A stretch of 64,000 nt of DNA from a virus (IMGVR_UViG_3300046514_000337:1423-65422); one strand, 5' to 3'; numbered from the stretch's first letter, positions 28,997 through 52,250 are shown. The notes: generated from the sequence alone by a model not told the origin. Program-made: numbers and translations.

Positions 28997-31900
28997 CTAC
29001 GGCCCCGCTGGCGCCCACGAAGTCTGCACGCTCGGATCGCCGCCGAGGAACTTGAAGCCCTGCACCACATCGCCGACTTTCGGTGCAGGTGGCGGCGCCG
29101 GAGCACCGCTCGGCTGGTTCAGTCCACGCGCCGTCTCCCCTGCCGCATGTGCCTGTGCCGGCGTCAGTTGCGGTTTGCCCATCAGGTCTTTGTAGTTTTC
29201 TTTCAGGTCCTGATCGGTCATCCGCAAGATGCGATCCTGCTCAGCCTTGTCCTTTGCCTGAGCTAATGCGGCCTTCCGTAGTGCGATATTCTGTGCTGCC
29301 ACGTCGCTGCGCGCCGCCTGATCCGGCTTCATGTTGATCGGCTGATCGCCCGATTTCATCGTGCCGGTGCGAGTGTCCATGAACAGCGGCATTCCCTGCC
29401 CATCTGTCCCGACGTAACTGAAGTGCCCGTTTTCAGCCCGCGTCGATGCTGCCTGCGCTGCGAGGTGCGCAGCATACGCTTGATCGCGCGCCGCCATTGA
29501 CTGAACGCGCTGCCCGTAGATGTCCGTGCGGTTCTCCGCATTGTGCGCCATCTGCTGCCGATACTGATCCAACTCCTGCTGCTTGAGCTGGTTGTATTCC
29601 AACTGCTGCTGCCGTAGCTTCTGGTTCTGCGCCCAGGTCAGCCCCTCGAGCGCGCCGTGGCCAATGTTGACGCTGGCATACGGTGACGACCCGCTCAGAA
29701 TACCGAGTCCCGCCGCCATCAGCGCCGCGCCCGGCGTTTGCGTCCAGTCTCCGGTGCCATGCGTACTCGGCGGCCCAAGCGCTCCGTGCGGGGCCGGCGC
29801 GGCTTCCTGCGCATCCTGCGCTGCCGTCACCTGATGCGCTGGTGGAGGCCCAAGCGCCCCATTGCCCGCCGCAGCAGGGCCGCCCGCAACGCTCGTGCCC
29901 ATCGGCTGCGTTATGTCGATGCCTGGCATTGCCGCTTGCAGCGCCTTGACTGTGCGCGGGTCCCATCGCTGCACCGGGATAATGTCGGCTACCATCGTCT
30001 GCGTGTCTTTATCAGCATCGTCAGCGGTGGGGTATTTGCGCAGATCGACGCCAGCCTTCGGGGCGAAATCGCGCCAGGTGCCGTCTGTAATCTGGTAGAA
30101 GCCGCGAGCGCGGCCCGAACTTGTCATGGGACCAGCGCCGTGCTCGCGGCCTGAATTTTCGGCAGCCCCAGTAACATCATGCACGATGTCGAGCGGCCCA
30201 CGGGGCGCACCCAGTACGTTGCCAGCCGAGGCGCCTGGCATCATTAGCGGAGCCTGCGGCGGCCCGAGGGCAGTGGCAGGTTGAGGAGCCGACGGCGGAA
30301 ACATCCTTGCCCCAGAGTAGGTATCCGGCACGGAGTTTGGATTGCGCAACCCGGCGGTTTCGCTCGCAATGTCAAAGTGCGCAGGCAAGTCTAAGGCTGC
30401 ATCAGGCATCGACTCCGGTGGGGGGGCCTGCATATGCTGCCACGCACCGCGAGCACGGCTACCAACCGCTCCCAACGCGCGCGCCATCGGACTGTCCGGT
30501 GCAATGAAAGGCTCCGCTCCAGCATCGCTCGGCCCACCGTAATCGTCATCTGCGACGCCACCGCTCGCCATCCCCATACCCGGCAAGCCGCCCAGCCCCT
30601 GCATCATCGGCTGAGGCTGCTGCGCGAGCGCCGGATCGCTCTGCGGCATCATCTGGCGCCGCCGCAGCACCGCCTGCACCAGCCCGCCCTGCTGCGAGCC
30701 AGGCGGTACACGCGCCTGCAACTCGCGCAGCTTCTCCGTCGGCATCGAGGACAGTTGGTTCAGCGCGTTCCCGTACATCGGGTTGCCAGAGCCGAGCCCC
30801 GCCTGCGATACCGGCGACAGGCCCGGCGTCGGCCCGAGGGCTAGCGGCAGCGCACCGCCGTCGTCGTAGCCGATCGGGCCGCCGAGTGCGCGATGTGGGA
30901 TGCGTCCGCCGCGAGCGCCGCCAGTATAGTACCACCCGGTATCCGCAGCACCCGTCGCACCCGCAAGGCCGGTGTCTATTGCGTTGCCGCCAGAGCCACC
31001 GAACCAGTTCCCCATCCCGTTAAACGCACCGCTGTTGTACAGCCCCAGCCCTGTCAGCCCGAGCCCCGCGGCCTGGCTAGCGATCGATGGCCCCGGCGTC
31101 GTCGTACTGCCCGAACTACCCGCGCCGTCCGCACCCGTCGCCAGCCCCAACTCGAAATTGCTGATCTGATACGGGAACGCCTGCGCCTGCTGAAACTGCT
31201 GATACGGCACGTTCAGTTGCTGCTGCGCCAGCCCCTGCATCTGGTTGCCGATGCCCAACTGCGCATTGGCCCCGCTCAGCCCGAGGCCCTGCGCCTCCTG
31301 CCCCAGGTTCGCCATCCCGAACGCGCCCTGCGACGCCAGCCACGCATTCGCCTCCTGCGAGGACAGCCCCGTGCCGAGCGCGCTCTGATAGGCAGCTTGT
31401 CCTATGTTTCCGAGTTGCCCGAGTGAACCGGCCGCGCCCAGCCCCAACTGCGCATTGGTCGTGCCAGTCTGCATCGCCGCGCCGAGCGCCTGCCCGTAGC
31501 CAGACTGCAGCACGTTCGCGAGCGAAGCATTGTTGGCGAGATCCTGTTGACCCGCGAGCGTCGATTGCGCGATGGCCGCCCGGTCGCCGCCGAACGCGCC
31601 AGCACCGACAGCCGAGCCAACAAGTTGCTGCTGCTGGATGGCATCGTTTTGCTTTTGCAGCGCTTGCAGCGAGGACGTGACGTTCTGCGTGTACGGCGAC
31701 ATGAAATTCTGCACGCCGAACTGGCCGCCGAGCGGATTCATGCCCTGCCCAGCCGTAGTCGCGAACTGCGATGCCGGCCCTAAGTAGCCTTGCAGTGCCG
31801 GATTGGAATACTGTCCTACGGTGGACGCCGGGTTGACGCCGGAGGTGCTCGCGTTAATGAGGTTCGCGGCTTGGCCTAGGTATGGCTGCGCGAGGCTAGA

Positions 31901-32155
31901 GGCGGCGTTGATGTTTCCAAATGCCGCCTGTTGCTCGGGGTTGAAGCCAGCAACGAGGGGGCTGTTGTACGTGGGATATGGAGCCTGAGCTACGTTAGTC
32001 CCGGTGTTAATGGCTGTCTGGTACGCTGCCTGGGCAAGTGGGTTCGGCGTCGTCGTCTGGGTGACAGTCGAGTTATTGCCACCACCCTTACTTCCAAACA
32101 GGAGAATAGAAGCGCGGTCTAGATATCTCGCAAAGCCTGTGTTACTCTGGCTCAT
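28997..32155 (-). CDS. ejection (DNA transfer/pilot) protein with lysozyme/transglycosylase-like domain
   Basis: GSKGGG..TVTQTT N-terminus; Q/G/A-rich; AENSG...ARGFYQITDGTW motif. Confidence 0.75.
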   Translation of the reverse strand: MSQSNTGFARYLDRASILLFGSKGGGNNSTVTQTTTPNPLAQAAYQTAINTGTNVAQAPYPTYNSPLVAGFNPEQQAAFGNINAASSLAQPYLGQAANLINASTSGVNPASTVGQYSNPALQGYLGPASQFATTAGQGMNPLGGQFGVQNFMSPYTQNVTSSLQALQKQNDAIQQQQLVGSAVGAGAFGGDRAAIAQSTLAGQQDLANNASLANVLQSGYGQALGAAMQTGTTNAQLGLGAAGSLGQLGNIGQAAYQSALGTGLSSQEANAWLASQGAFGMANLGQEAQGLGLSGANAQLGIGNQMQGLAQQQLNVPYQQFQQAQAFPYQISNFELGLATGADGAGSSGSTTTPGPSIASQAAGLGLTGLGLYNSGAFNGMGNWFGGSGGNAIDTGLAGATGAADTGWYYTGGARGGRIPHRALGGPIGYDDGGALPLALGPTPGLSPVSQAGLGSGNPMYGNALNQLSSMPTEKLRELQARVPPGSQQGGLVQAVLRRRQMMPQSDPALAQQPQPMMQGLGGLPGMGMASGGVADDDYGGPSDAGAEPFIAPDSPMARALGAVGSRARGAWQHMQAPPPESMPDAALDLPAHFDIASETAGLRNPNSVPDTYSGARMFPPSAPQPATALGPPQAPLMMPGASAGNVLGAPRGPLDIVHDVTGAAENSGREHGAGPMTSSGRARGFYQITDGTWRDFAPKAGVDLRKYPTADDADKDTQTMVADIIPVQRWDPRTVKALQAAMPGIDITQPMGTSVAGGPAAAGNGALGPPPAHQVTAAQDAQEAAPAPHGALGPPSTHGTGDWTQTPGAALMAAGLGILSGSSPYASVNIGHGALEGLTWAQNQKLRQQQLEYNQLKQQELDQYRQQMAHNAENRTDIYGQRVQSMAARDQAYAAHLAAQAASTRAENGHFSYVGTDGQGMPLFMDTRTGTMKSGDQPINMKPDQAARSDVAAQNIALRKAALAQAKDKAEQDRILRMTDQDLKENYKDLMGKPQLTPAQAHAAGETARGLNQPSGAPAPPPAPKVGDVVQGFKFLGGDPSVQTSWAPAGP

Positions 32156-32181
32156 CGCCGTCCCACCGTAGAGGCAATGGC

Positions 32182-32700
32182 ATGCTCACCGCCGAAAGGC
32201 TGCGGGAAGTTATTCGATATGACCCGGAGAGCGGACTCATTTATCCGCTGCAGCAACCAAATCGCCCAAAACGAAATGACCTTGGACGCTCCGTAGGAAG
32301 AATGAGCGTTCATGGCTACGTCAGGCACAAAATCGAAGGCAAAGACCGCTGGGTTCACCGCTTGGCGTGGCTTTATATGACCGGAGAATGGCCGGCCGCT
32401 GAGGTCGATCACGTTAACGGCGTTAGACACGACAACAGATGGGGCAATTTGCGAGCCGCTACCAAAGCGGAAAATGCTAAGAATAATAGAGGCAAATCGG
32501 TAAATGGGTACCTTAAGGGCACCTATCCGCACTATCGCAAATGGTCCGCCGCGTTGCGGGTTAATGGCAAGCGCTTGTTGCTGGGCTATTTTGCTACCGA
32601 GATTGAGGCACATAACGCCTATATGGAGGCAGCGAGAAAACACTACGGAGTCTTCGCCACACGCGGGAAGGTGGCAAATCAGCGCGGCATTCATGACTGA
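32182..32700 (+). CDS. HNH homing endonuclease with AP2-like C-terminus, antisense to the late operon
   Basis: LTAERLRE..YDPESG; HRLAWLYMTGEWP..EVDHVNG.RHDNRWGNLR; LGYFAT..EAH.AY. Confidence 0.92.
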   Translation: MLTAERLREVIRYDPESGLIYPLQQPNRPKRNDLGRSVGRMSVHGYVRHKIEGKDRWVHRLAWLYMTGEWPAAEVDHVNGVRHDNRWGNLRAATKAENAKNNRGKSVNGYLKGTYPHYRKWSAALRVNGKRLLLGYFATEIEAHNAYMEAARKHYGVFATRGKVANQRGIHD

Positions 32701-33089
32701 ATGTCCCTCATCATTACGAGGCCGTACCTCGTCCATCCACGCTTAGCTAAAAACGGCTCCCATCCTTCGCGTCCGCACTCCGTCAGCGCCGTGCAGCCCT
32801 GTTGGCGCGCGAACTCCTCCATCTGGGGAATGAGGGAAAGGCAAGCGTCCAGTTCGCCGATCGCAAGCCAGATGTTCATCACCTTGCGGCGGGGATAAAC
32901 CGTAACTTCGGTGATGCACGCGCCCCTGTCATCACCGAAGAACTGCGCAGCGCCGCGCTGGATCATGGCGATGATGTCGCCGACTGTGTGTGTGTCGCCC
33001 GCGCGGCGAAGGGCACGGAGCAGCGGCGTCCGAAGCGCCAGAAGCGCGTCGATCCGCGGATCGGTCTGGAATGCGACGGCTTCGCTCAC
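32691..33089 (-). CDS. GNAT-like virion assembly protein
   Basis: CITEV..YPR..NIWLAIGEL...EEFARQQGC......GREGW; located before the ejection genes. Confidence 0.7.
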   Translation of the reverse strand: MSEAVAFQTDPRIDALLALRTPLLRALRRAGDTHTVGDIIAMIQRGAAQFFGDDRGACITEVTVYPRRKVMNIWLAIGELDACLSLIPQMEEFARQQGCTALTECGREGWEPFLAKRGWTRYGLVMMRDIQS

Positions 33090-33544
33090 GCCGCCCTCAC
33101 CAGAAACATCGAGCCGGCCCGTGCCCCGTTCTTGGCGAACAGGCGCGATTTGCCGCCGTCCCCATCGGTCCAGTCCATCAGGTAAACGCGCAGCCCCAAC
33201 TGTGCGCCGAACCAGTCCGAGAACTTCACCAGATCGGCGGCGTGGCTGGACTTCCGGTGGTCAGAATGCACGTGGCCTCCGAAGAACGACATCACCGCGT
33301 AGTCGTCCGAATACCACCAATTTTGGATATGAAGTCCAATAGCGGCAACGACAATATTGCCCTCTTTGATTATCCCAAACACGGGATTCACCCGCTTGGT
33401 GATGGCGTTCGTGACCGTGTTCCACACCTTCTCAGTGTTCACCGGCGCGTGCCGCATTTCCTCGTGCGCGGAGATGCAGAACGTGTAGAGCGCGTCGGCA
33501 TCCGCCTCGGTGGCGATTTTCACGCTGGTTGGACACGCGATCAT
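33086..33544 (-). CDS. GNAT-like protein
   Basis: VKIATEAD start; WWYSD...HVHSDHRKS..A..L motif. Confidence 0.65.
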   Translation of the reverse strand: MIACPTSVKIATEADADALYTFCISAHEEMRHAPVNTEKVWNTVTNAITKRVNPVFGIIKEGNIVVAAIGLHIQNWWYSDDYAVMSFFGGHVHSDHRKSSHAADLVKFSDWFGAQLGLRVYLMDWTDGDGGKSRLFAKNGARAGSMFLVRAA

Positions 33545-35166
33545 TTCTGCGGCCCCGGCAAACGCTTAATGACAGAAATGTTATGTTTTCGGAACTTCAC
33601 GATGAAATCGTCGAGGAGCGCATGGCCGTGCTCTAAACTCTTGCCAGAGAGCTTCATCACTTCCTCCGGGGACACTATTCGCTCTCCCCCGGCCACGATT
33701 ACAGGGACGAGCCCCTTCGTTCGCCCGCCGCGCGAGAAGTGGTGCGCTCCGACCATGCGTGGCGCTGACGGTGGCCGAGGTAGCGTGCCGTGCAGCTTAG
33801 GCATCGGCAACGAGGTCCCGAACGGCCCCTGATGGATCATCGCATCAAACTGATGCGCGCCAGAAGCGGTGTTTCCCTGTCCCATGCCGGACATTATGTC
33901 AGCAGGCATAACATAGCTGCCATGTGGCAGCGAAAGCGGGATGTGATCGCTCCGCCCCCCTATGGGGCTATTAATCAGCCCCGACGGGTGTTCCGTGTTC
34001 CGCGCCTCGTTGCGCTCAAACCATGGTGCGGCCTGTCCCATCGGCATCATGCCGCCGCCGTTCGCGCGCTTTTTGATCCGGCCACCGCGGGCCTGACCGC
34101 CGCCCGTGATGTCGCCCATACCCTGGCCGCTCTCAAGGCCAGCGCCCAGCGCGTTAATTCCCAGGTCGCCAGCCACGGCCTGCGCGCCTGGATCCTGCGA
34201 CGTGCCTGGGTCAAATCCCCCAATTGCGCCGCCGATGCCCCCCCCCACCAACGAACCCAATGGTCCGAGCCCCAAGACAGAGCCAATCCCGGCGCCTATC
34301 TTTGCTCCAGTGCCAGAAAAGCCAAACGACGGTCCCTGGCCGCCGATGATATCTACCACCGATGGGTTGCCACCCCCGACCCCCGCATTGACGCCGCCGA
34401 CCTCGGCGTTCCCCGCGCCCTCCGGCCCGCTCCCGGGTTGCCCGGCTTGTCCAGACGGCTGCGCACTGGCGGCTGGCGCCCCCGCCTGCTGCCCCCCGAT
34501 ATTCAGCCCCCGCTGCGCCAGCGTCCGTAGCGCTGCCTGTGTCCCTGGCGTCAGCGCCCCCGTCATCGGATCGAGGCTGAAGTCACCCGTCTGCGGGGTG
34601 TTCATAAAGCCAGCGGAGTTGATGCCCATGTCGCTGGGCACCTGCGGGCTGTAGCGCGGCAGGTTCGCGAGGTTCACGGGGCTACCGGCGGTGCCGGCCA
34701 GATAGGACGGAGCCTGCGGGAGAGGTCCGGCAGGCGACTGTCCCGCTGGCGACTGCCCCGAGGAACCGCCTGGCGGGGCAAACACGTCCCGCGCATACTG
34801 CTGGGCCCCCGCATGGGCTGCGGCGATGGCATCGTAGCCGGCCTGGATCGCATCACTCTGGCTGACACCACCGCCGCCAGCAGGCGACTGCCCCGACGGA
34901 GTGCCCGTACCGAAAACCCCCTGCGCATACTGCTGCGCCCCTGTACGGGCTGCAGCAATGGCATCGAAGGCAGCCTGCATAGGATCGCTCTGGCCGACTC
35001 CACCGCCCGCGGCACGCTTCTTCACCCGCGCGTTCGCTGTGGCGATGGCCAGGCCCTCGTCGCCTGTCCGCTTCAGGATGGCGTTGGCAATGCGCGCCGC
35101 GTGCGCCGACTGCCCTGGGGAGAGCGCTCGGTTGTGCTTTCGGAAGCTGGCTTGGTCCCAAGGCAT
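33541..35166 (-). CDS. putative internal virion protein with ChaB/YdaT-like N-terminus and a GRSDHIP...GSYV domain
   Basis: MPW...ARIANAIL..GDEGLAIATAN; ~44-aa tandem repeat; C-terminal GGRSDHIPLSLPHGSYVMPAD and VAGGERIVSPEEV. Confidence 0.65.
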   Translation of the reverse strand: MPWDQASFRKHNRALSPGQSAHAARIANAILKRTGDEGLAIATANARVKKRAAGGGVGQSDPMQAAFDAIAAARTGAQQYAQGVFGTGTPSGQSPAGGGGVSQSDAIQAGYDAIAAAHAGAQQYARDVFAPPGGSSGQSPAGQSPAGPLPQAPSYLAGTAGSPVNLANLPRYSPQVPSDMGINSAGFMNTPQTGDFSLDPMTGALTPGTQAALRTLAQRGLNIGGQQAGAPAASAQPSGQAGQPGSGPEGAGNAEVGGVNAGVGGGNPSVVDIIGGQGPSFGFSGTGAKIGAGIGSVLGLGPLGSLVGGGIGGAIGGFDPGTSQDPGAQAVAGDLGINALGAGLESGQGMGDITGGGQARGGRIKKRANGGGMMPMGQAAPWFERNEARNTEHPSGLINSPIGGRSDHIPLSLPHGSYVMPADIMSGMGQGNTASGAHQFDAMIHQGPFGTSLPMPKLHGTLPRPPSAPRMVGAHHFSRGGRTKGLVPVIVAGGERIVSPEEVMKLSGKSLEHGHALLDDFIVKFRKHNISVIKRLPGPQK

Positions 35167-35229
35167 TACCGCCGCTCCTTCACGCAGCGCCGGAAGGATA
35201 GCGGGTTATCCCCCGTTTTTCCAGCGGTC

Positions 35230-35682
35230 TTATTTTAGATACCATATCGTCGCCACGACCGACGCGCTGCCCCATGCCGCCGAGGCCACGTAAACGGTCT
35301 GCGGAGCCGTCCACGCCTGGAGCAGGAACGCGCTCACCGGCACGATCGAGTTGGCCGCCACGGCCGTCGCACCCAGGATCTGTGCCCCACCCGGTGACGT
35401 GCCGAGCGACACGCTGACGTTGTGTCCCGCCGTCTCGCGCAGCGTCACGGCGATAATGATGGCGTTGGCCGGGATCGTGTCGAGCGCCCCGTTCGCGCCG
35501 AACGCGCCAGATGCTTTGTCGATCGGGGAGTTCGCCTCGTCGATTGCGGCATCGGCCGCAAAGGAGCGCTCGATCTGCGCCATGGCGTTGTTGAACGTAC
35601 TGGCGTCTACCTGCGGCCCGCGGGCACGCGGATATGGCGGTGCCGAAAGAATGCCGCTTCTACCTTTGACACTCCCGCTCAT
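35230..35682 (-). CDS. tail-associated hypothetical protein
   Basis: Coupled to the tail tubular gene; C-terminal beta sandwich. Confidence 0.6.
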   Translation of the reverse strand: MSGSVKGRSGILSAPPYPRARGPQVDASTFNNAMAQIERSFAADAAIDEANSPIDKASGAFGANGALDTIPANAIIIAVTLRETAGHNVSVSLGTSPGGAQILGATAVAANSIVPVSAFLLQAWTAPQTVYVASAAWGSASVVATIWYLK

Positions 35683-37247: not shown

Positions 37248-37249
37248 CG

Positions 37250-41113: not shown

Positions 41114-41503
41114 TCATGGCGGGATCACGCGCTCAGGTGTGTTCGCACCGATCTGCGGCGCAATCGCATTGATGACTGAGCTATCGTTCCTTCGGATGAT
41201 CGCCCCGTTGTTATCAGTCAGCACGTAAATTTGCATCGGAGGCCCGATGTCCAAATCCGGTCGCGGATTCCAGATCGGCAGCGGATCGGGGGGCGGAACG
41301 TATGTGCGAAGCTGCGCCTGCGGGATATCGAGGCAACCCGGGCACACGAGAATGCGCAGATTCGCCAGTTGGGCGCCGCGCCAGTCGTACTGCCAAGTCA
41401 GCCGACTGTGGTTGTACCACAGGCCGCATCTATCGCAGCATCCAAACGCGCGGGGCCTGCGCGATGATATCTGAACTCGACCTCGGGCTTGGACGAACGC
41501 CAT
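41114..41503 (-). CDS. Cys-rich phage neck/tail protein
   Basis: CDRCG...QYDWRG...ILVCPGCLDIPQAQL...DPLPIWNPRPD. Confidence 0.7.
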   Translation of the reverse strand: MAFVQARGRVQISSRRPRAFGCCDRCGLWYNHSRLTWQYDWRGAQLANLRILVCPGCLDIPQAQLRTYVPPPDPLPIWNPRPDLDIGPPMQIYVLTDNNGAIIRRNDSSVINAIAPQIGANTPERVIPP

Positions 41504-43133: not shown

Positions 43134-43134
43134 G

Positions 43135-43899
43135 TTAGCGATCATAATAACTGGCCAAGCCGGGGGCAATGTAGATGGACACAACCTCCCTTTCCGCGAT
43201 CCGCGCTCGCTGGTAGCTTGCAGCGGCCTTTGCTGTCAGCGCGGCGGACATTTCCGGCGCATAGGTGTAGGAAAGCTCGACCGCCAGCGCGTCTACGTAG
43301 GCCATCAACCAACGAGCGGGTATCGCTACCTGTGTGCCACCTGCCAGCGTTGCATCCTGCGACTTTTTAAACCGCCAGTAGAAAAGAACGTATGGTCCAT
43401 TCCGGTCCGGCACGGGATAGAGATGGATGACAGGCGATATGAGCCGGTCAAACCAATAAGTTGTGGTAGGAGCCTGCAAGAACGGGTTCGGGTATGACGC
43501 AAACTCGCTACGCCCAACCGGAAAGATCACCCGATTGTTTGCGAACTGCGTGCTGCCGTTCGCCATCAGCGCGCCGCTCTCGTCCACCAGCGGAACGCCT
43601 ACATTGTCCGTCAGAAAGCCGGATGCCTGGGTCTGCACATAGGCATCGGCAACCATGATCGTATCCGGCGGGCACTGCACAATCTGCTGCCCCTGAGCCA
43701 GCGGGGCCGTTTGCAGGTCCACATCCCACAGCAGGGGCTGGTCAGTACTCCAATCGCTAAGTATCAGGTTTGCCGCCATATAGGCGTCGGCCAGATGCTC
43801 CTGAAGGACGGCAGTGCGGCGCACCTTCACGCGGCCAAGCGCGTAAACCGCGAGGCCGCCGAGCGCCGGATTGAAGGTGGTGGTGCCGGTGGTAGTGAT
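43135..43899 (-). CDS. head-tail connector-like protein (probable ATC start)
   Basis: The frame extends 23 codons upstream of the tracked GTG to an ATC behind GGAGG; ANLILSDWS...LW, YWFDRLISP..LYPVPD. Confidence 0.7.
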   Translation of the reverse strand: MTTTGTTTFNPALGGLAVYALGRVKVRRTAVLQEHLADAYMAANLILSDWSTDQPLLWDVDLQTAPLAQGQQIVQCPPDTIMVADAYVQTQASGFLTDNVGVPLVDESGALMANGSTQFANNRVIFPVGRSEFASYPNPFLQAPTTTYWFDRLISPVIHLYPVPDRNGPYVLFYWRFKKSQDATLAGGTQVAIPARWLMAYVDALAVELSYTYAPEMSAALTAKAAASYQRARIAEREVVSIYIAPGLASYYDR

Positions 43900-43954: not shown

Positions 43955-44293
43955 TCAGCGGGACGACATCCCCTGGATCGTGCGGAACGTGATGCTGCCG
44001 CCCGACGGGCCGGTGGTGACGTTGATCCGCAGGAACTGGATCGGCTCGGTGATGAGGCCGTTGGCGTTGCCTGTGGCCGCCGTCACCACGTCGGTCCATA
44101 CCGGAGCCGCCACCGTATTCACGTCATCGAAGGTCTGCTGCACGCTGAAGGTGCCCGTAACCGCCGTGCCCAAATTCTCAACGCTCCAGGAAAGCCCGAA
44201 CGGAGTCTGCATCCAATCGCAGTTGTAGGGCGCCTGGGCCCCTGCCGGCGAGCCGGTCCCCACGTTCGCCACGGTTTGCACGCGGAGAGCCAT
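43955..44293 (-). CDS. small beta-rich structural protein
   Basis: FSVQQTFDD...PIQFLRINVT; synteny. Confidence 0.65.
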   Translation of the reverse strand: MALRVQTVANVGTGSPAGAQAPYNCDWMQTPFGLSWSVENLGTAVTGTFSVQQTFDDVNTVAAPVWTDVVTAATGNANGLITEPIQFLRINVTTGPSGGSITFRTIQGMSSR

Positions 44294-45063
44294 CAGGAGC
44301 CTCGCCCGATGTCAGGATACTTCGCATGAACCTTCGCGCGCACGGTCGCCTTCTGCGCCGGAGAGCCGTGCTGCGATACCCGCGCGAGGGCGTTTCTGGC
44401 GTGAGAGGCATCTGGGATCGGATACGAGCCAGACCCAGCCCCCTTCGGTCCCGCGCCCTTGCCTGGCAGCGCGAAATCGCTCTTGGGGAGATGCTGACGC
44501 TCGGAGGCAGTCAGACGCCCCCCGCCAGCCAGCTTGATCGGCTTGTGCTCGCCGCCGTGCTCCGCCGTCTCATGCTGGCGGATCGCGCTACGGATCATCG
44601 AGGCATCGGCTGCCCGGTCGTCGTGTGTTTCACGTGAAACACTCCCGCCGCGCGCCCGGTTATGCACCGCCGGCAGCGCGCCAGGCTCGTCGATCGTCGG
44701 ACGCGCGGGCTGGTCATGCGCAGCGGCGTTGAACCGCTCCTTGATCGAGCCGCCAGCCGCGCGTTGCCGATAGCGATCAATGTTGTGCTGGGCAGCATCG
44801 CCTATGCGGTGCGAGTCCTCGATCAGTCCAGAAACAGCACCGAGCGAATCGCTCGGGCCGACATTTGACGCAGTTGGACCTGGATATGGCTCGCCGCTTG
44901 GCCACGCCTTGCCGCGCGAGTAGATGTCGTCATTGGCCGAACCGCCCGTCGCCCGCTTCTTCGCCGGAGCACGATCCAGCCGCCGCTTTGCGCCCTGGCC
45001 CTCTACCGAGCCGCCAAAGGCACGCCGCAACCGCTTCGCGTAGAGCTTCTCATGCGGCTGCAT
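44293..45063 (-). CDS. basic AxGG-repeat protein with C-terminal DUF6582-like domain
   Basis: ER..LPKSDFALP...YPIPDASHARNALARVSQ. Confidence 0.65.
   Translation of the reverse strand: MQPHEKLYAKRLRRAFGGSVEGQGAKRRLDRAPAKKRATGGSANDDIYSRGKAWPSGEPYPGPTASNVGPSDSLGAVSGLIEDSHRIGDAAQHNIDRYRQRAAGGSIKERFNAAAHDQPARPTIDEPGALPAVHNRARGGSVSRETHDDRAADASMIRSAIRQHETAEHGGEHKPIKLAGGGRLTASERQHLPKSDFALPGKGAGPKGAGSGSYPIPDASHARNALARVSQHGSPAQKATVRAKVHAKYPDIGRGS
44626..44641. promoter_or_regulatory. parS site TGTTTCACGTGAAACA
   Basis: Perfect 16-bp palindrome matching the bacterial parS consensus; lies within a CDS (encodes VSRET). Confidence 0.85.
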
Positions 45064-45236: not shown

Positions 45237-45680
45237 TCAGTCGTCCCGCTTGTCGGTCGAGGTCTGCAGCGAAGCCCCCGACGGCGCCGTCAGCCGGGCA
45301 GCCGACGTCATGGGCGACGTGTCCGCACCAATCCCGCCGCCACGCTTGCGCCCTGGCACGCGGTCCATCCTGTGATGCCGCGGGGCCTTTCCATCAACGT
45401 GCATCGGCATCGAGCCATGATGCACACCGCCGCCGCGCTTCAGTGCGATCGGGCCGCCTTGCTGCAGCACAATCGGGCCGCCTTGGGCGCGCTTGTGATG
45501 CTTCGCCCGGCCGCCGTGCTTGTGGCCGCCGTACCCGCCGGCCATGGCGTCCTTCTCGGTCTTCGACCCGACCGCGTTGTACTTCTGCGATCCGCGGCCT
45601 TCCTTCTCGTCCTCGGCCAGCTCCTCCATGCGCGACTCCTCAGCACCGCCGCCAGAAGCCCTCTTGTGGTGTGCCATCAA
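45237..45680 (-). CDS. basic His/Gly-rich AxGG-repeat protein
   Basis: Strong SD; six xxGG motifs. Confidence 0.7.
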   Translation of the reverse strand: MMAHHKRASGGGAEESRMEELAEDEKEGRGSQKYNAVGSKTEKDAMAGGYGGHKHGGRAKHHKRAQGGPIVLQQGGPIALKRGGGVHHGSMPMHVDGKAPRHHRMDRVPGRKRGGGIGADTSPMTSAARLTAPSGASLQTSTDKRDD

Positions 45681-45692
45681 CTGGCCTCCTTA

Positions 45693-46964
45693 TTAAAACT
45701 GCGCGTTGCCCATGAGCGAGGTCGCGCTCACGGCATTCGCCAAGATCATCTCCGACAGCGAGTTCCGCACGCCCATCGAAAGAATGACGCCCGTGAATGC
45801 CGTGCCTGAGTGGGATCCGTTCGAGGCGGTCGAGCCGATGCCTCCGCCGAGGCCGCCGATCGCCGATGTCTGGATCGTGCCGCGCACATCAGCCGTCGTG
45901 GCCGTGCTCGCCGTGCCGGAGGCCAGACCTGCAGTGAAGCCCGTGGCAGCCACGTTCATGCCAGCGTTCCACCAAACCTCGGTGTTCTCGATCTGCGCCG
46001 CCCTCGTCGCGAAGCCGAATACATCCGATGTGCCCACCGCATAGGTGTAAGTAGCATCAGTGAAGGCCGGTGTCACTGACGCAATGTACTTGAACGCCTT
46101 GATGCCATAGGTCGTGACCGATGTGCCCGGCACGCTCGTGATCGTCTCCGTCATGGCCTGGCCGTAGACGTCGTAGCCCTTGACGGTAAGCGCGCCGCCA
46201 GCGCCCAGCGCGTTGTTGCAGGTGATGACCACGCCCCGCGCAATCGCCTGCCGCGGATCGAGGAACAGCCCGGGCCCCGAGGCAAAGTAAGGAGCCGCCG
46301 CCGTAGGCACGCCTGCCGAGCCGCCTTCGATCGGCTGCCAGATATTGCCCGTGCCAACCCGTGCGCCGCCTGTCGCCGCCGAAAACGGCGCCGTGCTCGT
46401 CATCACCGCTACCGTCGCCGAGGTGATGCTCTGCACCGTCGTCATCCACGGCGTGGTGGTCGTCGCGATGGCCGCAAACACCAGCGGCATGCCGGGCACC
46501 AGCACCGACGTATCCGCAAATGTCACGTTGGCCGAGCCACTCACCAGCGTGGCCAGCCCAAACCCGAAGTCGAGGCACAGCGCCGGCGTGACGATCGTCT
46601 GACCGCCGTATCCGTTGCCCGTTGCCGATATCGGCGAAATCGGGATGTTCGCCACCGCGCCGAAGGACGGCACCGCCAGCGTCATCGCTACGCCGCTCGC
46701 CACCGTATGCGCAGCCGCAATATTTGTGGTGAGGTGCGCCGCTGGCGTTCCAACCGCCGAGCGGTAAAGCGCGGCATTGAACAGCGCCGGAGCAATGCCC
46801 TTAAAGCCCCCCGCGCGTTCCTTGTCGAAGATAAACCGCGGATCGGGCACGCCGTAGCCGTGGTAGAACATCGACGGGCCGAGACCCTGCTCGCCGCCCG
46901 CGACGCCGCCCGCAGAGAGCGAGCCGTAGGCAACGAACGGGCCTTGACCACCTGTCATTGCCAT
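45693..46964 (-). CDS. putative capsid-associated structural protein
   Basis: 423-aa beta-rich ORF directly after the major capsid gene. Confidence 0.7.
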   Translation of the reverse strand: MAMTGGQGPFVAYGSLSAGGVAGGEQGLGPSMFYHGYGVPDPRFIFDKERAGGFKGIAPALFNAALYRSAVGTPAAHLTTNIAAAHTVASGVAMTLAVPSFGAVANIPISPISATGNGYGGQTIVTPALCLDFGFGLATLVSGSANVTFADTSVLVPGMPLVFAAIATTTTPWMTTVQSITSATVAVMTSTAPFSAATGGARVGTGNIWQPIEGGSAGVPTAAAPYFASGPGLFLDPRQAIARGVVITCNNALGAGGALTVKGYDVYGQAMTETITSVPGTSVTTYGIKAFKYIASVTPAFTDATYTYAVGTSDVFGFATRAAQIENTEVWWNAGMNVAATGFTAGLASGTASTATTADVRGTIQTSAIGGLGGGIGSTASNGSHSGTAFTGVILSMGVRNSLSEMILANAVSATSLMGNAQF

Positions 46965-47013
46965 TTCAGGCGCTCCTTAGTTGGCAGGTCATGCTATTTC
47001 TTCCCCACCACGG

Positions 47014-47928
47014 TCAAGATGTGGGGAACGTGCCCCAAATACCTCTTGGGTTTTTATACCCAGCAAAGTACCTTTCGTAGCCTTTCACTAATAGGTTATC
47101 AGTCGAGTCATCCACCCACATGGACATCTCGAACTCCTGCCGCTGCAGGTAGAGCAGCCCGTCGTAGTTCGTCTGCACGAACCAGGCGAAGTTCGACGTG
47201 AAGAAGTCCATGACCTCGTAGCCGTCGGGGAGCGAGCCGGTGGCGCGCATGGCGTTGGCATCGTTGTCCGCGGTGCCGGGGCGCAGCGTCGTGTGCCACA
47301 GGCGCGCGGCGACCCACTCGTTGTAGGGATGCACGAGCAGCCGGCGCCCCCGCCAGAAGCCCTTCAGGCCCGCTTGATCGCGGAACAGCGTGCGGATCGA
47401 GGTGAGTGCGGTGAGGAGCGCCGCTTCGTTCAGGTCGAGTTGCGCGCTCGACGGCGTGTTCGCCCAGGTGCCATAGTCGTAGGGATGCGACGCGGAGCAC
47501 ATGGCCACGCCGTCCCCCTGGACCGCACCATTATAGACATTGGCGGTGTTCAGGACGTTGGCAGCCTGGATTTCCTTGTACTGCGCGAAGCTCTCGTGCA
47601 AGCCAAGGTTGGAGGCCGGGAACTCCGCTTCATACAGGTTGTCGTCGATCGCCTTGCGGGTGATGGCGTAGCCCAGCCCCACCTCGAAGTGCTCGTGGTT
47701 ATAGATGAAGCGCTCGCCGGCGTTGTTGTCCATGTAGGTCGCGGCGCCCTCGGTCTTGAGAGCAGCGAGACCCATGTAGCGGTTCTCGGCGGTGCGCTCG
47801 ATGCCGAGGTTCGACTTGCCTTGCCAGAAGATTTTGCTCCACTGAGTCGGGATCTGCTCGTATTTGCCTTCGATGCCGCGGAGGCCGGGGCGGGTGAGGT
47901 CGTAGATGGAGGCGACTGAAATGGCCAT
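47014..47928 (-). CDS. major capsid protein (HK97 fold)
   Basis: MAI.....L.RPGL; K.EG....D; GLGYAIT.KAIDDNLY; GDGV...SASHP; KGYERY; strongest codon bias. Confidence 0.88.
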   Translation of the reverse strand: MAISVASIYDLTRPGLRGIEGKYEQIPTQWSKIFWQGKSNLGIERTAENRYMGLAALKTEGAATYMDNNAGERFIYNHEHFEVGLGYAITRKAIDDNLYEAEFPASNLGLHESFAQYKEIQAANVLNTANVYNGAVQGDGVAMCSASHPYDYGTWANTPSSAQLDLNEAALLTALTSIRTLFRDQAGLKGFWRGRRLLVHPYNEWVAARLWHTTLRPGTADNDANAMRATGSLPDGYEVMDFFTSNFAWFVQTNYDGLLYLQRQEFEMSMWVDDSTDNLLVKGYERYFAGYKNPRGIWGTFPTS

Positions 47929-47940
47929 TGCTTCGCCTCC

Positions 47941-48585
47941 TTATGCGACTGCTGTGACGGTGCGGGTTTCGGCGAAGTTGAACATCACCACCACCCAGTT
48001 GTAGGCGGTCGTGTCGTCCACACCCGGAGAGCCCACCTCGAGGAAGTCACTGGCAAGGCCAACGATGCGGAAGGGCAGCGTCGTGCCCGCCGAAGCGACC
48101 GCCGTGAAAAGATCGATGTAGCAGGACGACTGCCCGGTCGTGGTGTTGCCGACGTTCGAGGCGCCCGTGTAGTTGATGTCCACGGTATTGCCGACGTTGG
48201 CGATCGTGGCTGGGCTGACGGTGCCGCTCGAGGCCCCGGTCTGCGCGAGAAACCGCGCGTTGGGGTTCGTGAAGATATTGGCCGGGAACGGGTTGGCGAG
48301 GGCGTCGCTCGTGCCCGGCCAGAACTTCGACATCACCGGGATTTTCCCGGCGATGGAGTAGTATTCGCAGTCCCAGAAGACGCCGGCCGCCTGGGCGCTT
48401 GAGCCCGCCGCCATCTGGCGGATGTAGCCGGCCTCCGTGGAGGTGCCCGTGACGACCGGATCGCCGCGAAAGATCGCGGTCGTGTCGGTCTTCAGGATTT
48501 TCCGGGGATTGAAGCTGAAGTTCGTGACCGTGCCGTCGCCAGACCAGAGCGGCATCAGGCCGAATGGAAGATTGGTGTTTGCCAC
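47941..48585 (-). CDS. capsid decoration/cement protein
   Basis: ANTNLPFGL.P, TAIFRGDPV, TLPFRIVG; immediately upstream of the major capsid gene. Confidence 0.7.
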   Translation of the reverse strand: MANTNLPFGLMPLWSGDGTVTNFSFNPRKILKTDTTAIFRGDPVVTGTSTEAGYIRQMAAGSSAQAAGVFWDCEYYSIAGKIPVMSKFWPGTSDALANPFPANIFTNPNARFLAQTGASSGTVSPATIANVGNTVDINYTGASNVGNTTTGQSSCYIDLFTAVASAGTTLPFRIVGLASDFLEVGSPGVDDTTAYNWVVVMFNFAETRTVTAVA

Positions 48586-48599
48586 GGGCAACAGCCTCC

Positions 48600-48725
48600 A
48601 TCGCTCGGAAGCTGGTGGCGGGCTCCGCCTGGGCTACCGATGATGAGGCTTGGTTCCCGGCATGGGAACGGTCGCGGCCGACGCGGCGGCCAGACCCCTC
48701 GAATGCCTCCAGCGCGGAGGCGGCG
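48600..48725 (-). other. structured leader with three tandem GC hairpins
   Basis: Stems at 48653-48669, 48676-48691 and 48705-48721. Confidence 0.6.
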
Positions 48726-48845
48726 GGACGTTAGGCGCAAGCGGTGAGACAGGTCAAGCTAATTGTTCTAGAGAAAGCGGGGAGGCAGTGGTTCCCGCCG
48801 CTGGCCTCCCCTAAGCCTGCACCCTTATGCAGAAGGATGCAGCTA

Positions 48846-49201
48846 TGAGCGTCGTAGAAATACGCGAAACCACCGTAACACAGGATTTATCTGGCGCAAT
48901 CGTTCAGCTTCGGATTTCCGACGCAAAGCTGCCAGACGACCCTGCCGAAATTCGTCTAACCATTCAGGCGGCAGTTCCGGCATTCGAACTGCCTTTGCTC
49001 GCACAGGTTCAGGGGGATGCGCTAAAGGCAGCATCATCTGTACCACGTGTTGCCGAGGCTTGCGCCCGTCATTTTCCCTCCGTTACTCTCAGCGCACGTC
49101 AAGAGGATTGTTGCTGCGGGCCGGAGTATACACCGGCTATGGCGGTGTTCCTCCGCCTCGGCATGCCGGCGATCAACCCGGCTTTCGGCAATGTAGTCTA
49201 G
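48846..49201 (+). CDS. antisense hypothetical ORF (moron-like, possibly degraded)
   Basis: Protein-like N-terminal half with lower GC; C-terminal half looks off-frame. Confidence 0.4.
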
Positions 49202-49257
49202 CCTTTCCGCGCGTGTCCTCTCCACGCCGCCGCAGCGTCTACGCTATACCACGAAAC

Positions 49258-49836
49258 TTACTCAATAGCCATCCCATCGCTGATCGGCATCCGCGTCACG
49301 CGCACGCTCGGCGCGATGCCCGGATGGTTCCGTGGCCCGGTGCCAGACGGTGCCGTCGCCAGCATGGCGTTCGCGTTCTGCTTCGCCAGCTTCGACTTCA
49401 GGTATGCGCCACGATGGCGGTTGTATGCCTCGTTCTCCGGCAGTTCGTAGAGCCGCTGACCCTCAAGTTCGATCGCGCCCTGATGGCCAGGCGGCATGAA
49501 CAACCCATCATGCCGTGAGGCCGGCACGGGCCGCCAGCCATTGCGCTCGGCCCGCTGCGCACGGCGGTTCGTGTCCGGCATGCCGTAGACTTCGGTGCGA
49601 AACCACTGGTACACCATGCCGGCGGGGATGATTTCCTCCGGCACCTCGAACTGCAGCGTCTCGTCCTCAAAGCCGCGCGCGATGATCTCCTCGTCCGTCA
49701 GGCGGCGCGATTGCAGACCATGCGGCTGCAGCGGCTCGCTGAGCGGCTTCTGCGCCGCCGTCAGCTCAGCATCCATAACGCTGGCGTCGAGACGGAGCGG
49801 CTTCTTAGCCGAGGGAGCATCAGCCGAGGTGCTCAT
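49258..49836 (-). CDS. head-module hypothetical protein
   Basis: IP.GMVYQW.R..V.G...GWRPVPASRH. Confidence 0.7.
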   Translation of the reverse strand: MSTSADAPSAKKPLRLDASVMDAELTAAQKPLSEPLQPHGLQSRRLTDEEIIARGFEDETLQFEVPEEIIPAGMVYQWFRTEVYGMPDTNRRAQRAERNGWRPVPASRHDGLFMPPGHQGAIELEGQRLYELPENEAYNRHRGAYLKSKLAKQNANAMLATAPSGTGPRNHPGIAPSVRVTRMPISDGMAIE

Positions 49837-50804
49837 CGTGCGTTCCTCCACGGATTGCCTCTCTTGAAGCCCTCGCTCCCAGTGGCCTGCTCCATGCGCA
49901 ACGCCTCAGCCCAGGACTGTGATACGAGCTGCATGTCGGGCACCTGCCGCCCATTCTCCTTCTTCGTAAAGCCCCATACCTTCATGGCGTGATCCACGAA
50001 CTCCTTGGGAATGTGATCTCCTCTCGGGCGCGTTTGGCTGTGGAGAGAAGCCGTCTGCCGTCCGGGCGCGGCCTGCGGAATCTGGCGCTGGCCACCGTTG
50101 GGAGGTGCCGGCTGCTCTGGATTGGTCAACCCTGCTGTCCTTTCGACGAACTGGAAATACTCCGGACTGTTTTGAGTGAGACCGCTCCCCATCGCGAGAG
50201 AATGAGCGCCGACAACACGAGCCTGGAACGCCGGATCGGTGTAGAACAGCGGACGGCCATCGGAGCCTACGTGGCTTCGTATCCAAGTCGCCGCCCGGGC
50301 ATCGCGCGTTGCCAGATCGGCTTCAATCGGATCGGCACCATCCTGCGGCTGTTGTTGCCTAGGCTGTTGCGCTGGCTCGCGAAGCTGCTGATTGCGCCGC
50401 GCCTCCATCTCCCGCTTGCCGGCCTCGAGTTGCGTAATCCGCGCTCCCACCTGCCCGGCCTGCACCGACAGATCCGCCACCTTCTCGAAATCGCCGGCTT
50501 CACCGGCAGCCTTCATCTGCCCCCGGATCAGATCGGCCTGGCGCAACTCGGCATCAAGCGCATTGCTGACTGAGGCGAAGTCCGATGTCTCCCGCTCCTG
50601 CGTGACGGTCTGCAACTGCTCGGTGACGTTGGCGACCTGCGCTTGCGCCGACCGGAGGCTCGCCTGATAGCGCCGTTCACGCTCGACGCGATCCGTCTCG
50701 AACTGCGCCTTGATCGCATCGATGGACGTAGCGGGGTCGGCGGGATCTGGCTTGTCGTCGATCGGTTCTTGTTCGGGCGGGGCGGCTTCTGCTGTTTCGC
50801 TCAT
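49833..50804 (-). CDS. scaffolding-like protein
   Basis: Acidic coiled coil; A.EAGDFEK; upstream of the capsid genes. Confidence 0.7.
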   Translation of the reverse strand: MSETAEAAPPEQEPIDDKPDPADPATSIDAIKAQFETDRVERERRYQASLRSAQAQVANVTEQLQTVTQERETSDFASVSNALDAELRQADLIRGQMKAAGEAGDFEKVADLSVQAGQVGARITQLEAGKREMEARRNQQLREPAQQPRQQQPQDGADPIEADLATRDARAATWIRSHVGSDGRPLFYTDPAFQARVVGAHSLAMGSGLTQNSPEYFQFVERTAGLTNPEQPAPPNGGQRQIPQAAPGRQTASLHSQTRPRGDHIPKEFVDHAMKVWGFTKKENGRQVPDMQLVSQSWAEALRMEQATGSEGFKRGNPWRNAR

Positions 50805-51367
50805 CAGAACACCACATCCGGCCGCGACACTGGCATTTTGATCGCCCGCTCATTCACGAAGTGCAGGCAGTTCACGCCGTTGATCGAAAGCCTGAACCCG
50901 TTGGCATCACCGCGGCGGAAGATCACCCAGTCATTCACCTCGAACTTGTCGGCGTCGGTCCACGTCAGTTGGGGCGTCTCCTCGAAACACCGCGCCCCCA
51001 TCTTCAGCACCAGCCCAACATGGCCCTGGTAGATGTCCTCATCGAGAACCCGATCAGGCCGCTGGATGCTTTCCCACGGGAACTTGTCGGGCCGCTTGTA
51101 CACCGCCACCAGAACCGCGTTCAGCGTCACCCGCACCGTATTCAGCGCCCACCCGACTTGATCGCGAATACGCTGCTTTTCGGACTCAAAGAACGCCATC
51201 GCCTCCGCCGTGTTGGGGCCGACCTCGACGCCAGGAACACGCTGCGGCGGGGCATCCTCGGCTTCTGCAGCAGCCATCGCGGCCGCACGCTGTTCCTCCG
51301 CCCGCCGCGCGTTCCGCTCCTGCATCCGCGCCTCACCGATATGCCTCGGCAACACCAAACTAGACAC
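50804..51367 (-). CDS. GroES-like co-chaperonin
   Basis: VLV...VGLVLKMG..CF...EVNDWVIF...INGV....NE..I. Confidence 0.7.
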   Translation of the reverse strand: MSSLVLPRHIGEARMQERNARRAEEQRAAAMAAAEAEDAPPQRVPGVEVGPNTAEAMAFFESEKQRIRDQVGWALNTVRVTLNAVLVAVYKRPDKFPWESIQRPDRVLDEDIYQGHVGLVLKMGARCFEETPQLTWTDADKFEVNDWVIFRRGDANGFRLSINGVNCLHFVNERAIKMPVSRPDVVF

Positions 51368-51668
51368 CGTACAGCGGCTCCTTCTTTTCTACGGCCTCGG
51401 GCTCGCCGCTCGCCTCGCGCTCAGCCTCCCTGATGGCCTTCAATGCGTTCGAGTACCCGCGCAGTTCCCCTACCGCCTCGCGATAGGCTTCCAGCGTTGG
51501 GAGCGTGCCTTCCGTCAGCGCGCCGCGCACCCGCTCGGAATGCTCCTGCAATAGGCGCGTCAACCGGCCAATGACCGTCTGCTCGGCGTAGGTCAGCGAC
51601 GGCTTCGGCTGCGGGATAACCCCCTGTTTGAGAGGCGCCCAGGCGTCGGGGTTGAGATCGATCCTCAT
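51360..51668 (-). CDS. hypothetical head-module protein
   Basis: YR..VG.LRG...AL..I helical motif. Confidence 0.65.
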   Translation of the reverse strand: MRIDLNPDAWAPLKQGVIPQPKPSLTYAEQTVIGRLTRLLQEHSERVRGALTEGTLPTLEAYREAVGELRGYSNALKAIREAEREASGEPEAVEKKEPLYGV

Positions 51669-51684
51669 TGTTTCACGTGAAACA
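51669..51684. promoter_or_regulatory. parS site TGTTTCACGTGAAACA
   Basis: Second perfect copy; intergenic, abutting the ATG at 51668. Confidence 0.85.
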
Positions 51685-51695
51685 TTTGGCAGACC

Positions 51696-52250
51696 CTAGT
51701 CAATCCGCATCTCTTTCTTTTGGGCAATCGACTTCTCGATCCGCCCCAACCCGCCGCCCGAGCCGGCATCCATCTTCGGCGGCTTCACCGCGCCGCCGCC
51801 CTTCATTCCAGGCGGGCGCATACCGGGCGGCGGTGGCATCCCGCCAGGGGGCGAACCCATCGGACGCGGCGGCATAGCGCCCGGGGGCATTCCACCCGGC
51901 GGTCCACCGGGCGGACCCCCCGGAGGCCCACCCATCTGCGGCATCGGAGGCCGCGCCGGAACCGGAACCGGCACCGCCTGCGGAGCGGACTGCTGCGCCG
52001 GTGGCACCAGCACGTTCACGCTCACATGCGCCTTCCCCTTGTGGCGATCGGCGCGCTTCTTGCTCGCACCACCCTCCACCGCCCCACCGTCAGCGTAGCC
52101 GGCACGATGATCCGGCTTCGAGTGATGCTTGCCGTGCGTCCCAGTGCGGGCATGGGGCACAGAACCCCCGCGACTTACCCCTGCCCGTTCCGCAATCCGC
52201 CCACCGCGAGCCTCGGCGCACGCCGAACGCATGCTGCGATAGTCAGTCAT
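51696..52250 (-). CDS. Pro/Gly-rich AxGG-repeat protein
   Basis: ARGGRI, SRGGSV, ADGGAV, KGGGAV; ends AGSGGGLGRIEK. Confidence 0.7.
   Translation of the reverse strand: MTDYRSMRSACAEARGGRIAERAGVSRGGSVPHARTGTHGKHHSKPDHRAGYADGGAVEGGASKKRADRHKGKAHVSVNVLVPPAQQSAPQAVPVPVPARPPMPQMGGPPGGPPGGPPGGMPPGAMPPRPMGSPPGGMPPPPGMRPPGMKGGGAVKPPKMDAGSGGGLGRIEKSIAQKKEMRID

Follow-up and report, generated by a model that had tools for sequence, protein, structure and literature searches.

A recurring Ala-x-Gly-Gly heptad as a possible processing joint in ejected proteins of a short-tailed phage

In the long-tailed phage T5, the tail protein pb2 (1,219 aa) is cut into pb2* and pb2C after R1127, and the segment downstream of the cut has been described as a metallopeptidase motif that shows muralytic activity (Linares et al., 2023; PMC10038345). 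The T5 record reads FVPR/AEGGMMYPG at this site (slash, cut); thus, the chain is cut just before the Ala of a short Gly-Gly heptad. In phage lambda, gpH is processed to gpH* and gpHC; the available part of the source states that the catalyst is unknown and does not map the cut to a residue (PMC12617516). Here, we describe a heptad of the T5 type (a bulky or basic residue, Ala, any residue, Gly, Gly, any residue, and Val or Ile) in five late proteins of a short-tailed phage. The stretch of DNA analyzed (64,000 nucleotides; hereafter the window) comprises bases 1423-65422 of the 65,422-base virus record IMGVR_UViG_3300046514_000337, and coordinates in it refer to the minus strand. It spans almost the whole genome (65 kb) of a podophage with T7-like late-gene order, as concluded from that order and from SU10-type adaptor and portal matches. 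We tentatively propose, with a probability of roughly 40%, that the heptads are processing joints of ejected proteins, and that one carrier, a 541-aa protein of the ejection cluster (33541..35166; protein 33541), corresponds, in a podophage, to the C-terminal end of tape measure proteins (TMPs).

Processing has also been predicted for the polyvalent proteins of phages and conjugative elements, through zincin-like metallopeptidase domains (available text of Iyer et al., 2017; PMC5512222). Such proteins carry at least two enzyme or effector domains per chain, a build found in none of the five window proteins and only in MW202675, the nearest phage record (portal 43% identical), where multidomain cargo proteins between the portal and scaffold genes hold heptads between their domains. 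In the tail-associated lysin of TP901-1 and Tuc2009, a Gly-rich junction preceding the catalytic domain is proteolytically processed, and a Gly-to-Arg change blocks this step (available text of PMC11409707). This junction, NGGGNSGGGD, differs from the heptad in lacking Ala and the flanking hydrophobic positions, and it is a single site in one protein.

All 20 peptide strings named in a first reading of the window were found at their places in five minus-strand open reading frames (ORFs). The consensus [RYFK]A.GG.[VI], which was set beforehand rather than fitted to this window, occurs seven times in the five proteins (2,207 aa) versus 0.07 expected, an enrichment over composition of about 100-fold, and none of 500 composition-preserving shuffles reached seven copies; the other 55 ORFs (15,655 aa) contain none, versus 0.31 expected. 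Bare A.GG was found 19 times in the five proteins (7.8 expected; 0 of 500 shuffles reached 19) and 13 times in the other ORFs (18.6 expected), while patterns written after the data were seen gave 9-13 copies versus approximately 0.6 expected. The window has nine copies of [RK]A.GG, including KRANGGGMM, and pairs spaced eight residues apart (GGRIGY..GG type) are present in the window, in MW202675, and in pelagiphage HTVC027P. The original prediction, that an AxGG motif recurs about 20 times across five late proteins and would prove enriched over the Gly-rich background and other ORFs, is therefore upheld. Three carriers contain the peptide ARGGRI in copies that differ at synonymous sites and have unrelated flanks; these are thus not recent DNA duplicates, and the peptide has been kept by selection. 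One ORF that was not among the genes counted for enrichment lies in the early region (~12118-12604, 161 aa) and starts MLNFAAGGHI, a perfect N-terminal heptad, although chance or a spurious ORF could account for it.

Protein 33541 consists, in order, of an N-terminal helical domain, a heptad (RAAGGGV; 34996..35016, aa 51-57), a Gly-rich variable region with a glycine-zipper-like hydrophobic stretch (34213..34311, aa 286-318), two tandem heptads (ARGGRI, aa 359-364, and KRANGGGMM, aa 366-374; together 34054..34092), and a C-terminal domain of two units (33544..34014, aa 385-541; hereafter the C-domain). Behind the glycine-zipper-like stretch, aa 366-377 read KRANGGGMMPMG, and aa 404-419, within the C-domain, read GRSDHIPLSLPHGSYV. 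In 19 homologues, A52, G54, and G55 never vary, and G361/362 and G371/372 are conserved; little or no change is seen in the later Gly-Gly pairs, whereas the Gly-rich region around them varies freely in length. The full-length AlphaFold model places all four heptads in segments with pLDDT below 50, between better-predicted modules. A fold search with this whole-protein model (pLDDT 47.9) returned only generic helical rows (aa 39-137) and was set aside as uninformative. PDB sequence searches with protein 33541 and with the C-domain profile A2 gave no matches at E≤10. The Pfam model Gly-zipper_Omp is matched by one of the 19 family members (E 0.005), and Tape_meas_lam_C (PF09718) by none of the five window proteins and, at E≤10, by none of these 19.

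This layout is close to that of T5 pb2. The heptads are identical in type (PR/AEGGMM in T5, KRANGGGMM here), and in both proteins a hydrophobic stretch precedes the heptad and a small C-terminal module follows it (T5 layout from the available text of PMC10038345); in protein 33541, the stretch (aa 286-318), heptads (359-374), and domain (385-541) follow one another as in T5. The hydrophobic stretch of lambda gpH occupies the same position, and Tape_meas_lam_C covers gpH 627-701, upstream of the gpH heptads, and matches nothing in the window. Like pb2, the window carriers probably exit the virion through the tail. The two cases differ in scale, as pb2 is one tail protein of a long-tailed phage with a single copy at the cut, whereas about 20 copies are spread over five proteins in the window.

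The C-domain is made of two repeats, each with a Gly-Gly, a β-hairpin, and two helices, and it ends LPGPxK. A disordered loop between the repeats holds another heptad (FSRGG in protein 33541, F-A-x-G-G in the family), with Gly-Gly in 164 of 164 and 163 of 164 sequences. An AlphaFold model built on a 41-sequence alignment reached a pLDDT of 81.5 and a pTM of 0.70. Residues 385-541 match 1,959 cluster representatives at E≤1e-3 (1,414 at E≤1e-10) among 1.84 billion, which puts the family at no fewer than 1,959 clusters (50% identity); no model of it was found in Pfam, NCBIfam, or PHROG. In proteins of 156-1,216 aa, the domain ends no more than 12 residues from the C terminus in all 164 sequences and no more than 5 in 162. 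R21, D23, D39, E111, and R142 (domain numbering) are identical in all 164, and N48 (161), D135 (161), and H131 (159) are near-invariant. Every family member has the heptad of the inter-unit loop and nearly all have an upstream one too: strict heptads N-terminal to the domain number 66 versus 0.8 expected (157 of 164 members, with at least 30 residues before the domain). The copies of the family share preferences for Ala at -2, a bulky or basic residue at -3, and Val, Ile, or Pro at +2 of the Gly-Gly. These data bear on one alternative, a passive hinge, in which the Gly-Gly pairs are flexible joints for fold-back or for threading through the tail channel and nothing recognizes them specifically. 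The location of the motifs in disordered, Gly-rich regions between modules is as such a hinge would have it, and ejected proteins must pass a narrow channel, as is generally known (reviewed in PMC8954989, available text). However, position-specific preferences on both sides of the Gly-Gly, an enrichment of about 100-fold, and Gly-Gly invariance across 164 sequences exceed the needs of a linker, and we consider this explanation unlikely.

Comparisons of the C-domain with other phage proteins lead to TMPs. In gp066c of Caulobacter phage RW, profile A2 matches unit 1 only (E 8e-11), and in a 340-aa protein of HTVC027P, unit 2 only (E 2e-5). The RW unit in turn matches 12 TMP-annotated records among its 17 non-Caulobacter matches (E 6e-4 to 7e-6), from Arthrobacter, Rhodococcus, Nitrincola, and cyanobacterial phages. 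With hhalign, unit 2 of the C-domain aligns weakly with gpH 729-772 (E 5.4e-4, probability 30%). By the transitive link that these sequence matches form, the C-domain appears to be two copies of a Gly-Gly/hairpin unit found inside TMPs. Roseophage CRP-902, T5, and lambda bear the motif without a full C-domain, and the C-domain profile matches none of them at E≤1. In structure searches, the best PDB hits of the C-domain model had an E of 2 (Foldseek) and a Z of 3.1 (VIA; no chain at Z≥5), and BFVD yielded only uncharacterised phage proteins. A pre-ejectosome chain of cyanophage A4 (9k2v_E) was rejected as a fold match, its VIA Z of 2.7 not being significant, and the available text of the A4 paper (PMC12002296) says nothing on the motif. 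The ESM Atlas yielded only unnamed viral clusters, the nearest named entry being crAss cargo protein 1 (score 0.85), a lead only. ART-PolyVal domains were present in 2 of 30 long members of the 33541 family above the Pfam cut-off, with a third weak match below it, and no fused forms longer than 947 aa were found, which is weak evidence.

Could the C-domain itself be the cutting enzyme? Here, the two-unit domain (and the single units of TMPs) would putatively cut heptads, in trans in this phage and in cis or within an oligomer in TMPs, which is the original prediction (binding or cleavage of the motifs in trans) in its strong form. Eight near-invariant polar residues fit a catalytic or ligand site, the C-domain co-occurs with motif-bearing proteins, and every inter-unit loop holds a heptad. 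In the available parts of the sources, moreover, the catalyst of the lambda cut is given as unknown and the T5 stretch after the cut as a metallopeptidase motif (PMC12617516; PMC10038345). Nevertheless, the PDB searches of the confident C-domain model with Foldseek and VIA gave no match to a known peptidase fold, and acidic and His residues are not shared as one set by the two units. Motif-like copies occur in CRP-902, which lacks the C-domain, and hydrolysis or binding of peptidoglycan would explain the conserved residues just as well. This reading, ranked after the passive hinge, is also unlikely. Rather improbable is its most specific form, in which the Gly-Gly/hairpin unit would be a self-processing peptidase of a new kind that cuts just before the heptad Ala, doubled in 33541-type proteins and single in TMPs. 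Single TMP units would then pair on oligomerisation, with action in trans on podophage cargo and within the oligomer in TMPs. If true, this would explain the lambda gpH and T5 pb2 cuts and amount to a cargo-maturation system common to long- and short-tailed phages.

A second carrier in the ejection cluster is the acidic protein 28997 (28997..32155; 1,052 aa, pI 5.5), which matches the PHROG "DNA ejection protein" and whose N-terminal part matches phrog_4287 and the N-terminus of "internal virion protein D" of MW202675. Behind this N-terminal domain lie a heptad cluster, ARGGRI-PH-RALGGPI-G-YDDGGAL (30848..30916, aa 414-436), and a further copy, MASGGVA (30551-30571, aa 529-535). The MW202675 protein has its heptads at aa 347, 434, 442, and 508, between the N-terminal part and an SLT domain. 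In that protein (locus L001, 9188-12745, plus strand), a segment matching Peptidase_S74, the self-cleaving chaperone of endosialidase, was also seen at aa 277-327, just before the first heptad (347). Its SLT domain spans aa 601-694, and protein 28997 has only the N-terminal 320 residues in common with it. A giant protein of 2,274 aa (22169..28993), which adjoins the ejection genes, was treated as context and kept out of the list of carriers; a single weak copy, LVKGGGRIAM (aa ~1916-1925), lies in it, and it shows no motif enrichment. In MW202675, the motif abounds in the four large proteins encoded between the portal and scaffold genes and in the two ejection proteins. Two of the four large ones are polyvalent: the first contains GNAT (64-121), Peptidase_M15 (294-378), and ART-PolyVal (569-721) domains with heptads at aa 51, 217, 412, and 555, and in the second a copy at aa 725 precedes an InPase domain (734-865).

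The three remaining carriers are small basic proteins. Protein 51696 (51696..52331; 211 aa, or 184 aa from Met28; pI 11.2), Gly/Pro-rich and encoded between the portal and scaffold genes, carries ARGGRI, SRGGSV, YADGGAV, and MKGGGAV as well as VEGGASKKRADR. Its syntenic counterpart in MW202675, to which it bears a weak similarity (E 0.002), is a 382-aa motif-array protein with about 13 copies, compared with 4-5 per small protein in the window. Protein 45237 (45237..45680; 147 aa, pI 10.1) is His- and Gly-rich, belongs to no family found in Pfam, PHROGs, or NCBIfam, and carries RASGG (aa 7-11), RAQGGPI, KRGGGV, KRGGGI, and VDGKAPRHHRMDR. Protein 44293 (44293..45063; 256 aa) has four R-A-x-G-G-S-[VIA] heptads, RAFGGSV, RATGGSA, RAAGGSI, and RARGGSV (aa 14, 37, 101, and 136), versus 0.09 expected in the shuffle test. 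A fifth copy, KLAGGGRLT (aa 178), immediately precedes its small C-terminal domain (44320..44520, aa 182-248), which matches phrog_16160 (E 2.4e-12). No Pfam domain and no recognised enzyme domain was found in any of the five window proteins.

Relatives of the phrog_16160 domain were found in 25 IMG/VR loci, often as a stand-alone protein of 62-106 aa. These stand-alone proteins begin just past the Gly-Gly position of the longer forms, which bear heptad runs upstream. The domain itself is a widespread small phage domain of about 70 aa (loci L010-L034) with a conserved YPI..HARNALAR..KVHAKYPDI pattern. One locus (L016, 2050-3696, plus strand) encodes a 548-aa ORF with at least 12 Gly-Gly copies around a 44293-type domain and a Pro-rich tail that ends like protein 51696 (GSGLGRLQK versus GGGLGRIEK). 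The idea that this ORF is a fusion of 45237-, 44293-, and 51696-like parts was statistically unsupported, because BLASTP returned motif-level matches only (E 0.03-0.08).

The small basic proteins also share a second motif, V[ED]G..[RK]..D[RK], which occurs once each in proteins 44293, 45237, and 51696 (expected 0.000-0.004 each), as had been noted in advance, and once more in the terminase; by eye, it is also present in MW202675 and several IMG/VR relatives. Written as V-[ED]-G-x(3-6)-[RK]-x-D-[RK], it stands after one heptad and before the next in the three proteins (approximately 45004-44950, 45398-45360, and 52079-52044; also L002 7830-8978), and heptad and second motif together form a repeat unit of about 25 residues. 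A further alternative is nucleic acid binding, in which RGG-box-like basic repeats would let the small proteins condense or escort packaged DNA, with the motif as part of the binding surface. A pI of 10.1-11.2, the abundance of Arg, Lys, and His in all three proteins, and the ARGGR and KRGGG copies fit this idea, and ejection proteins of cyanophage A4 contact DNA via Arg and Lys (available text of PMC12002296). The idea accommodates neither the acidic variants (YADGG, YDDGG) nor the copies carried by protein 28997, itself acidic, however, and the motif recurs in TMPs and between enzyme domains, which makes this the least probable of the explanations, and very unlikely.

The C-domain and heptad carriers were found together across related contigs. 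After exclusion of L018, L019, and L021 (which repeat L020), L025 (which repeats L024), and L031 (broken frame) from the 25 loci, the 44293-like ORFs of 20 contigs were classed by eye, the ambiguous L034 being counted as motif-less. A C-domain profile match was present in six of nine contigs with a heptad-bearing 44293-like protein, the three misses being fragments 12-37% complete, and in none of 11 contigs with a bare 44293-type domain, six of which are at least 99% complete (Fisher p 0.002, uncorrected for relatedness). This co-occurrence may be a lineage effect. In 80 IMG/VR C-domain loci, taken from at least 587 found, other ORFs on the same strand carry 55 strict heptads versus 6.5 expected, and those on the opposite strand carry none.

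Together, these results favor processing as the leading explanation, ranked ahead of a docking tag, a passive hinge, the domain as enzyme, and DNA-binding repeats. It is suggested by the enrichment and its restriction to five late proteins, by purifying selection on the Gly-Gly pairs and A52 amid variable flanks, by the position of heptads at module borders, and by stand-alone 44293-type domains that start just past the Gly-Gly position. It also draws on the T5 cut at this very motif, on the profile matches that tie the C-domain to the RW and HTVC027P units and the RW unit to TMP-annotated records, on the excess of same-strand heptads in C-domain loci, and on the processing predicted for polyvalent proteins (PMC5512222, available text). 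On this model, the heptad would be a conserved joint of proteins that leave the particle via the tail channel, namely TMPs where the tail is long and ejection or cargo proteins where it is short. Five probable proteins of this kind in the window have it in predicted disordered stretches that border their folded modules. As in T5 pb2, a cut, or at least a hinge, would lie immediately N-terminal to the Ala, with the event placed either in particle assembly or after ejection; that any copy is cut in this phage, when, and by which agent are suppositions. The individual modules would thereby be released, and the three small basic proteins would end up as short basic peptides. Protein 33541 would correspond to the C-terminal end of a tape measure: a glycine-zipper stretch, KR-ANGGGMM, then a module of two Gly-Gly/hairpin units.

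Several observations weigh against processing. Only the T5 site, in a long-tailed phage, has been mapped to the residue. No sequence likeness was detected between T5 pb2C and the C-domain (hhalign E 0.36). Scans of the late proteins against Pfam, PHROGs, and NCBIfam brought up no peptidase family, which does not amount to the absence of a protease, and small late proteins without a known family, as protease candidates, gave no Pfam match at E≤1. A strict heptad in a further ORF is present in only 34 of the 80 C-domain loci, many of which are fragments. Among 336 family copies, about one-third have a basic residue ahead of Ala and 43% have Met, Tyr, Phe, or Leu there, a mixture that seems odd for one Arg-specific cut. 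Cutting would be pointless at some copies: RW gp066c ends in a complete heptad (RYMDGGRV), and the domain protein of locus L036 starts MYAQGGLI, Met plus a complete heptad, 4 nt after the preceding stop.

Some of these observations suit an uncut docking tag, which is possible but less probable than processing. As such a tag, the heptad would be a short strand that binds a partner (the 33541-type C-domain, portal or core, scaffold, or other heptads) and recruits or stacks proteins inside the particle, the many-copy small proteins acting as multivalent glue for cargo. A tag would account for whole heptads kept at the very ends of proteins with nothing beyond them, as at the C-terminus of RW gp066c and the N-terminus of the L036 protein, and the variety of bulky residues ahead of Ala is more in keeping with a binding pocket than with a single protease specificity. 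The motif arrays of the disordered basic proteins, the pairs at eight-residue spacing, and the co-occurrence with the C-domain (6/9 versus 0/11 contigs) point the same way. On the other hand, there is no obvious partner that TMPs would share with proteins carried in the capsid, precisely this motif is cut in T5, and the co-occurrence may reflect lineage only.

The original prediction interpreted the motif as a capsid-sorting or processing signal. Its descriptive parts have held: the motif is enriched and confined to probable particle-internal or ejected proteins, a conserved C-domain family exists, and no standard prohead protease gene was found in the head module by Pfam, PHROGs, or NCBIfam. 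Its remark that the 33541 domain is of a type following the motif in TMPs was likewise borne out, since the RW unit links the C-domain to TMP-annotated records. Capsid sorting, by contrast, leaves the same motif in TMPs, which are tail proteins, unexplained. Internal proteins of phage T4 carry a capsid targeting sequence that the prohead protease cuts during maturation, and the sites of the adenovirus protease are of the xGG type and contain Gly-Gly. Both are short signals on particle-internal proteins that are cut at maturation; however, no prohead or adenain-like protease was detected in the window, the T5 cut precedes Ala rather than following Gly-Gly, and the window motif is internal and repeated instead of forming an N-terminal leader. 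Cuts of the host-protease, adenain-like, and LexA-like kinds were rejected, as cleavage ahead of Ala agrees with none of them and no enzyme of these kinds was detected. The "cleavage" of the JBD30 tape measure is a prediction only in the available text of PMC11445458 and was not used as evidence.

A literature search found no description of the heptad as a shared element, with subscription journals (including the 2008 T5 pb2 paper) and supplements outside its reach. The available text of PMC5512222 does not contain the words glycine, linker, or tape measure, nor that of the ejection-protein review PMC8954989 the words glycine or Gly, and Gly-Gly terms occurred together with tape measure or ejection protein terms in none among the matches listed. 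New here are the C-domain family, its two-unit build, its tie to tape-measure units, and its co-occurrence with motif-bearing proteins. The loading, the jointing or unfolded state, and the release of injected proteins carried by phages are poorly understood, and a sequence code common to TMPs, podophage ejection proteins, and polyvalent cargo proteins would be one handle on all three. The heptad predicts cut or docking sites that can be tested in lambda, T5, and Caulobacter phages, and the 33541-type domain is a large uncharacterised phage family that is always C-terminal, with no Pfam model and no solved fold.

The late genes of the window run, on the minus strand, from terminase (58099-59793) and portal (54106-56526, which anchors the order) through the small-gene cargo block, a GroES-like gene (50804-51367), directly before the coiled-coil scaffold-like gene (49833-50804), and the capsid gene (47014-47928) to the SU10-type adaptor (43135-43830), tail genes, and ejection genes. 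The ejection cluster reads 33541, two small genes, 28997, and 22169. Family scans found no tail tube or TMP family among the window proteins. More distant relatives than MW202675 are roseophages CRP-901 and CRP-902, pelagiphages HTVC023P and HTVC027P, and Caulobacter phages of the RW group. Counterparts of the GroES-like gene in MW202675, CRP-902, HTVC027P, and Caulobacter phage RW are annotated as co-chaperonin GroES, and gene order is kept across the clade. The two small genes between proteins 33541 and 28997 (32691-33544) have no Pfam match; in the same place, MW202675 has a "putative acetyltransferase," and L036 too has a gene directly after its domain protein. Among the tail genes, a 129-aa Cys-rich protein (41114-41503) with two CxxC pairs is zinc-ribbon-like and matches no family. 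At 1249-4055 lie an N6/N4 DNA methylase gene and two genes for GcrA-like regulators, one of which carries a fused sigma-70 region 4 helix-turn-helix (HTH); this apparent cell-cycle-control module, of a kind familiar from alphaproteobacteria, hints at an alphaproteobacterial host. The portal and terminase region (52000-62000) shows a strong negative GC skew (to -0.35), far more pronounced than in the rest of the window.

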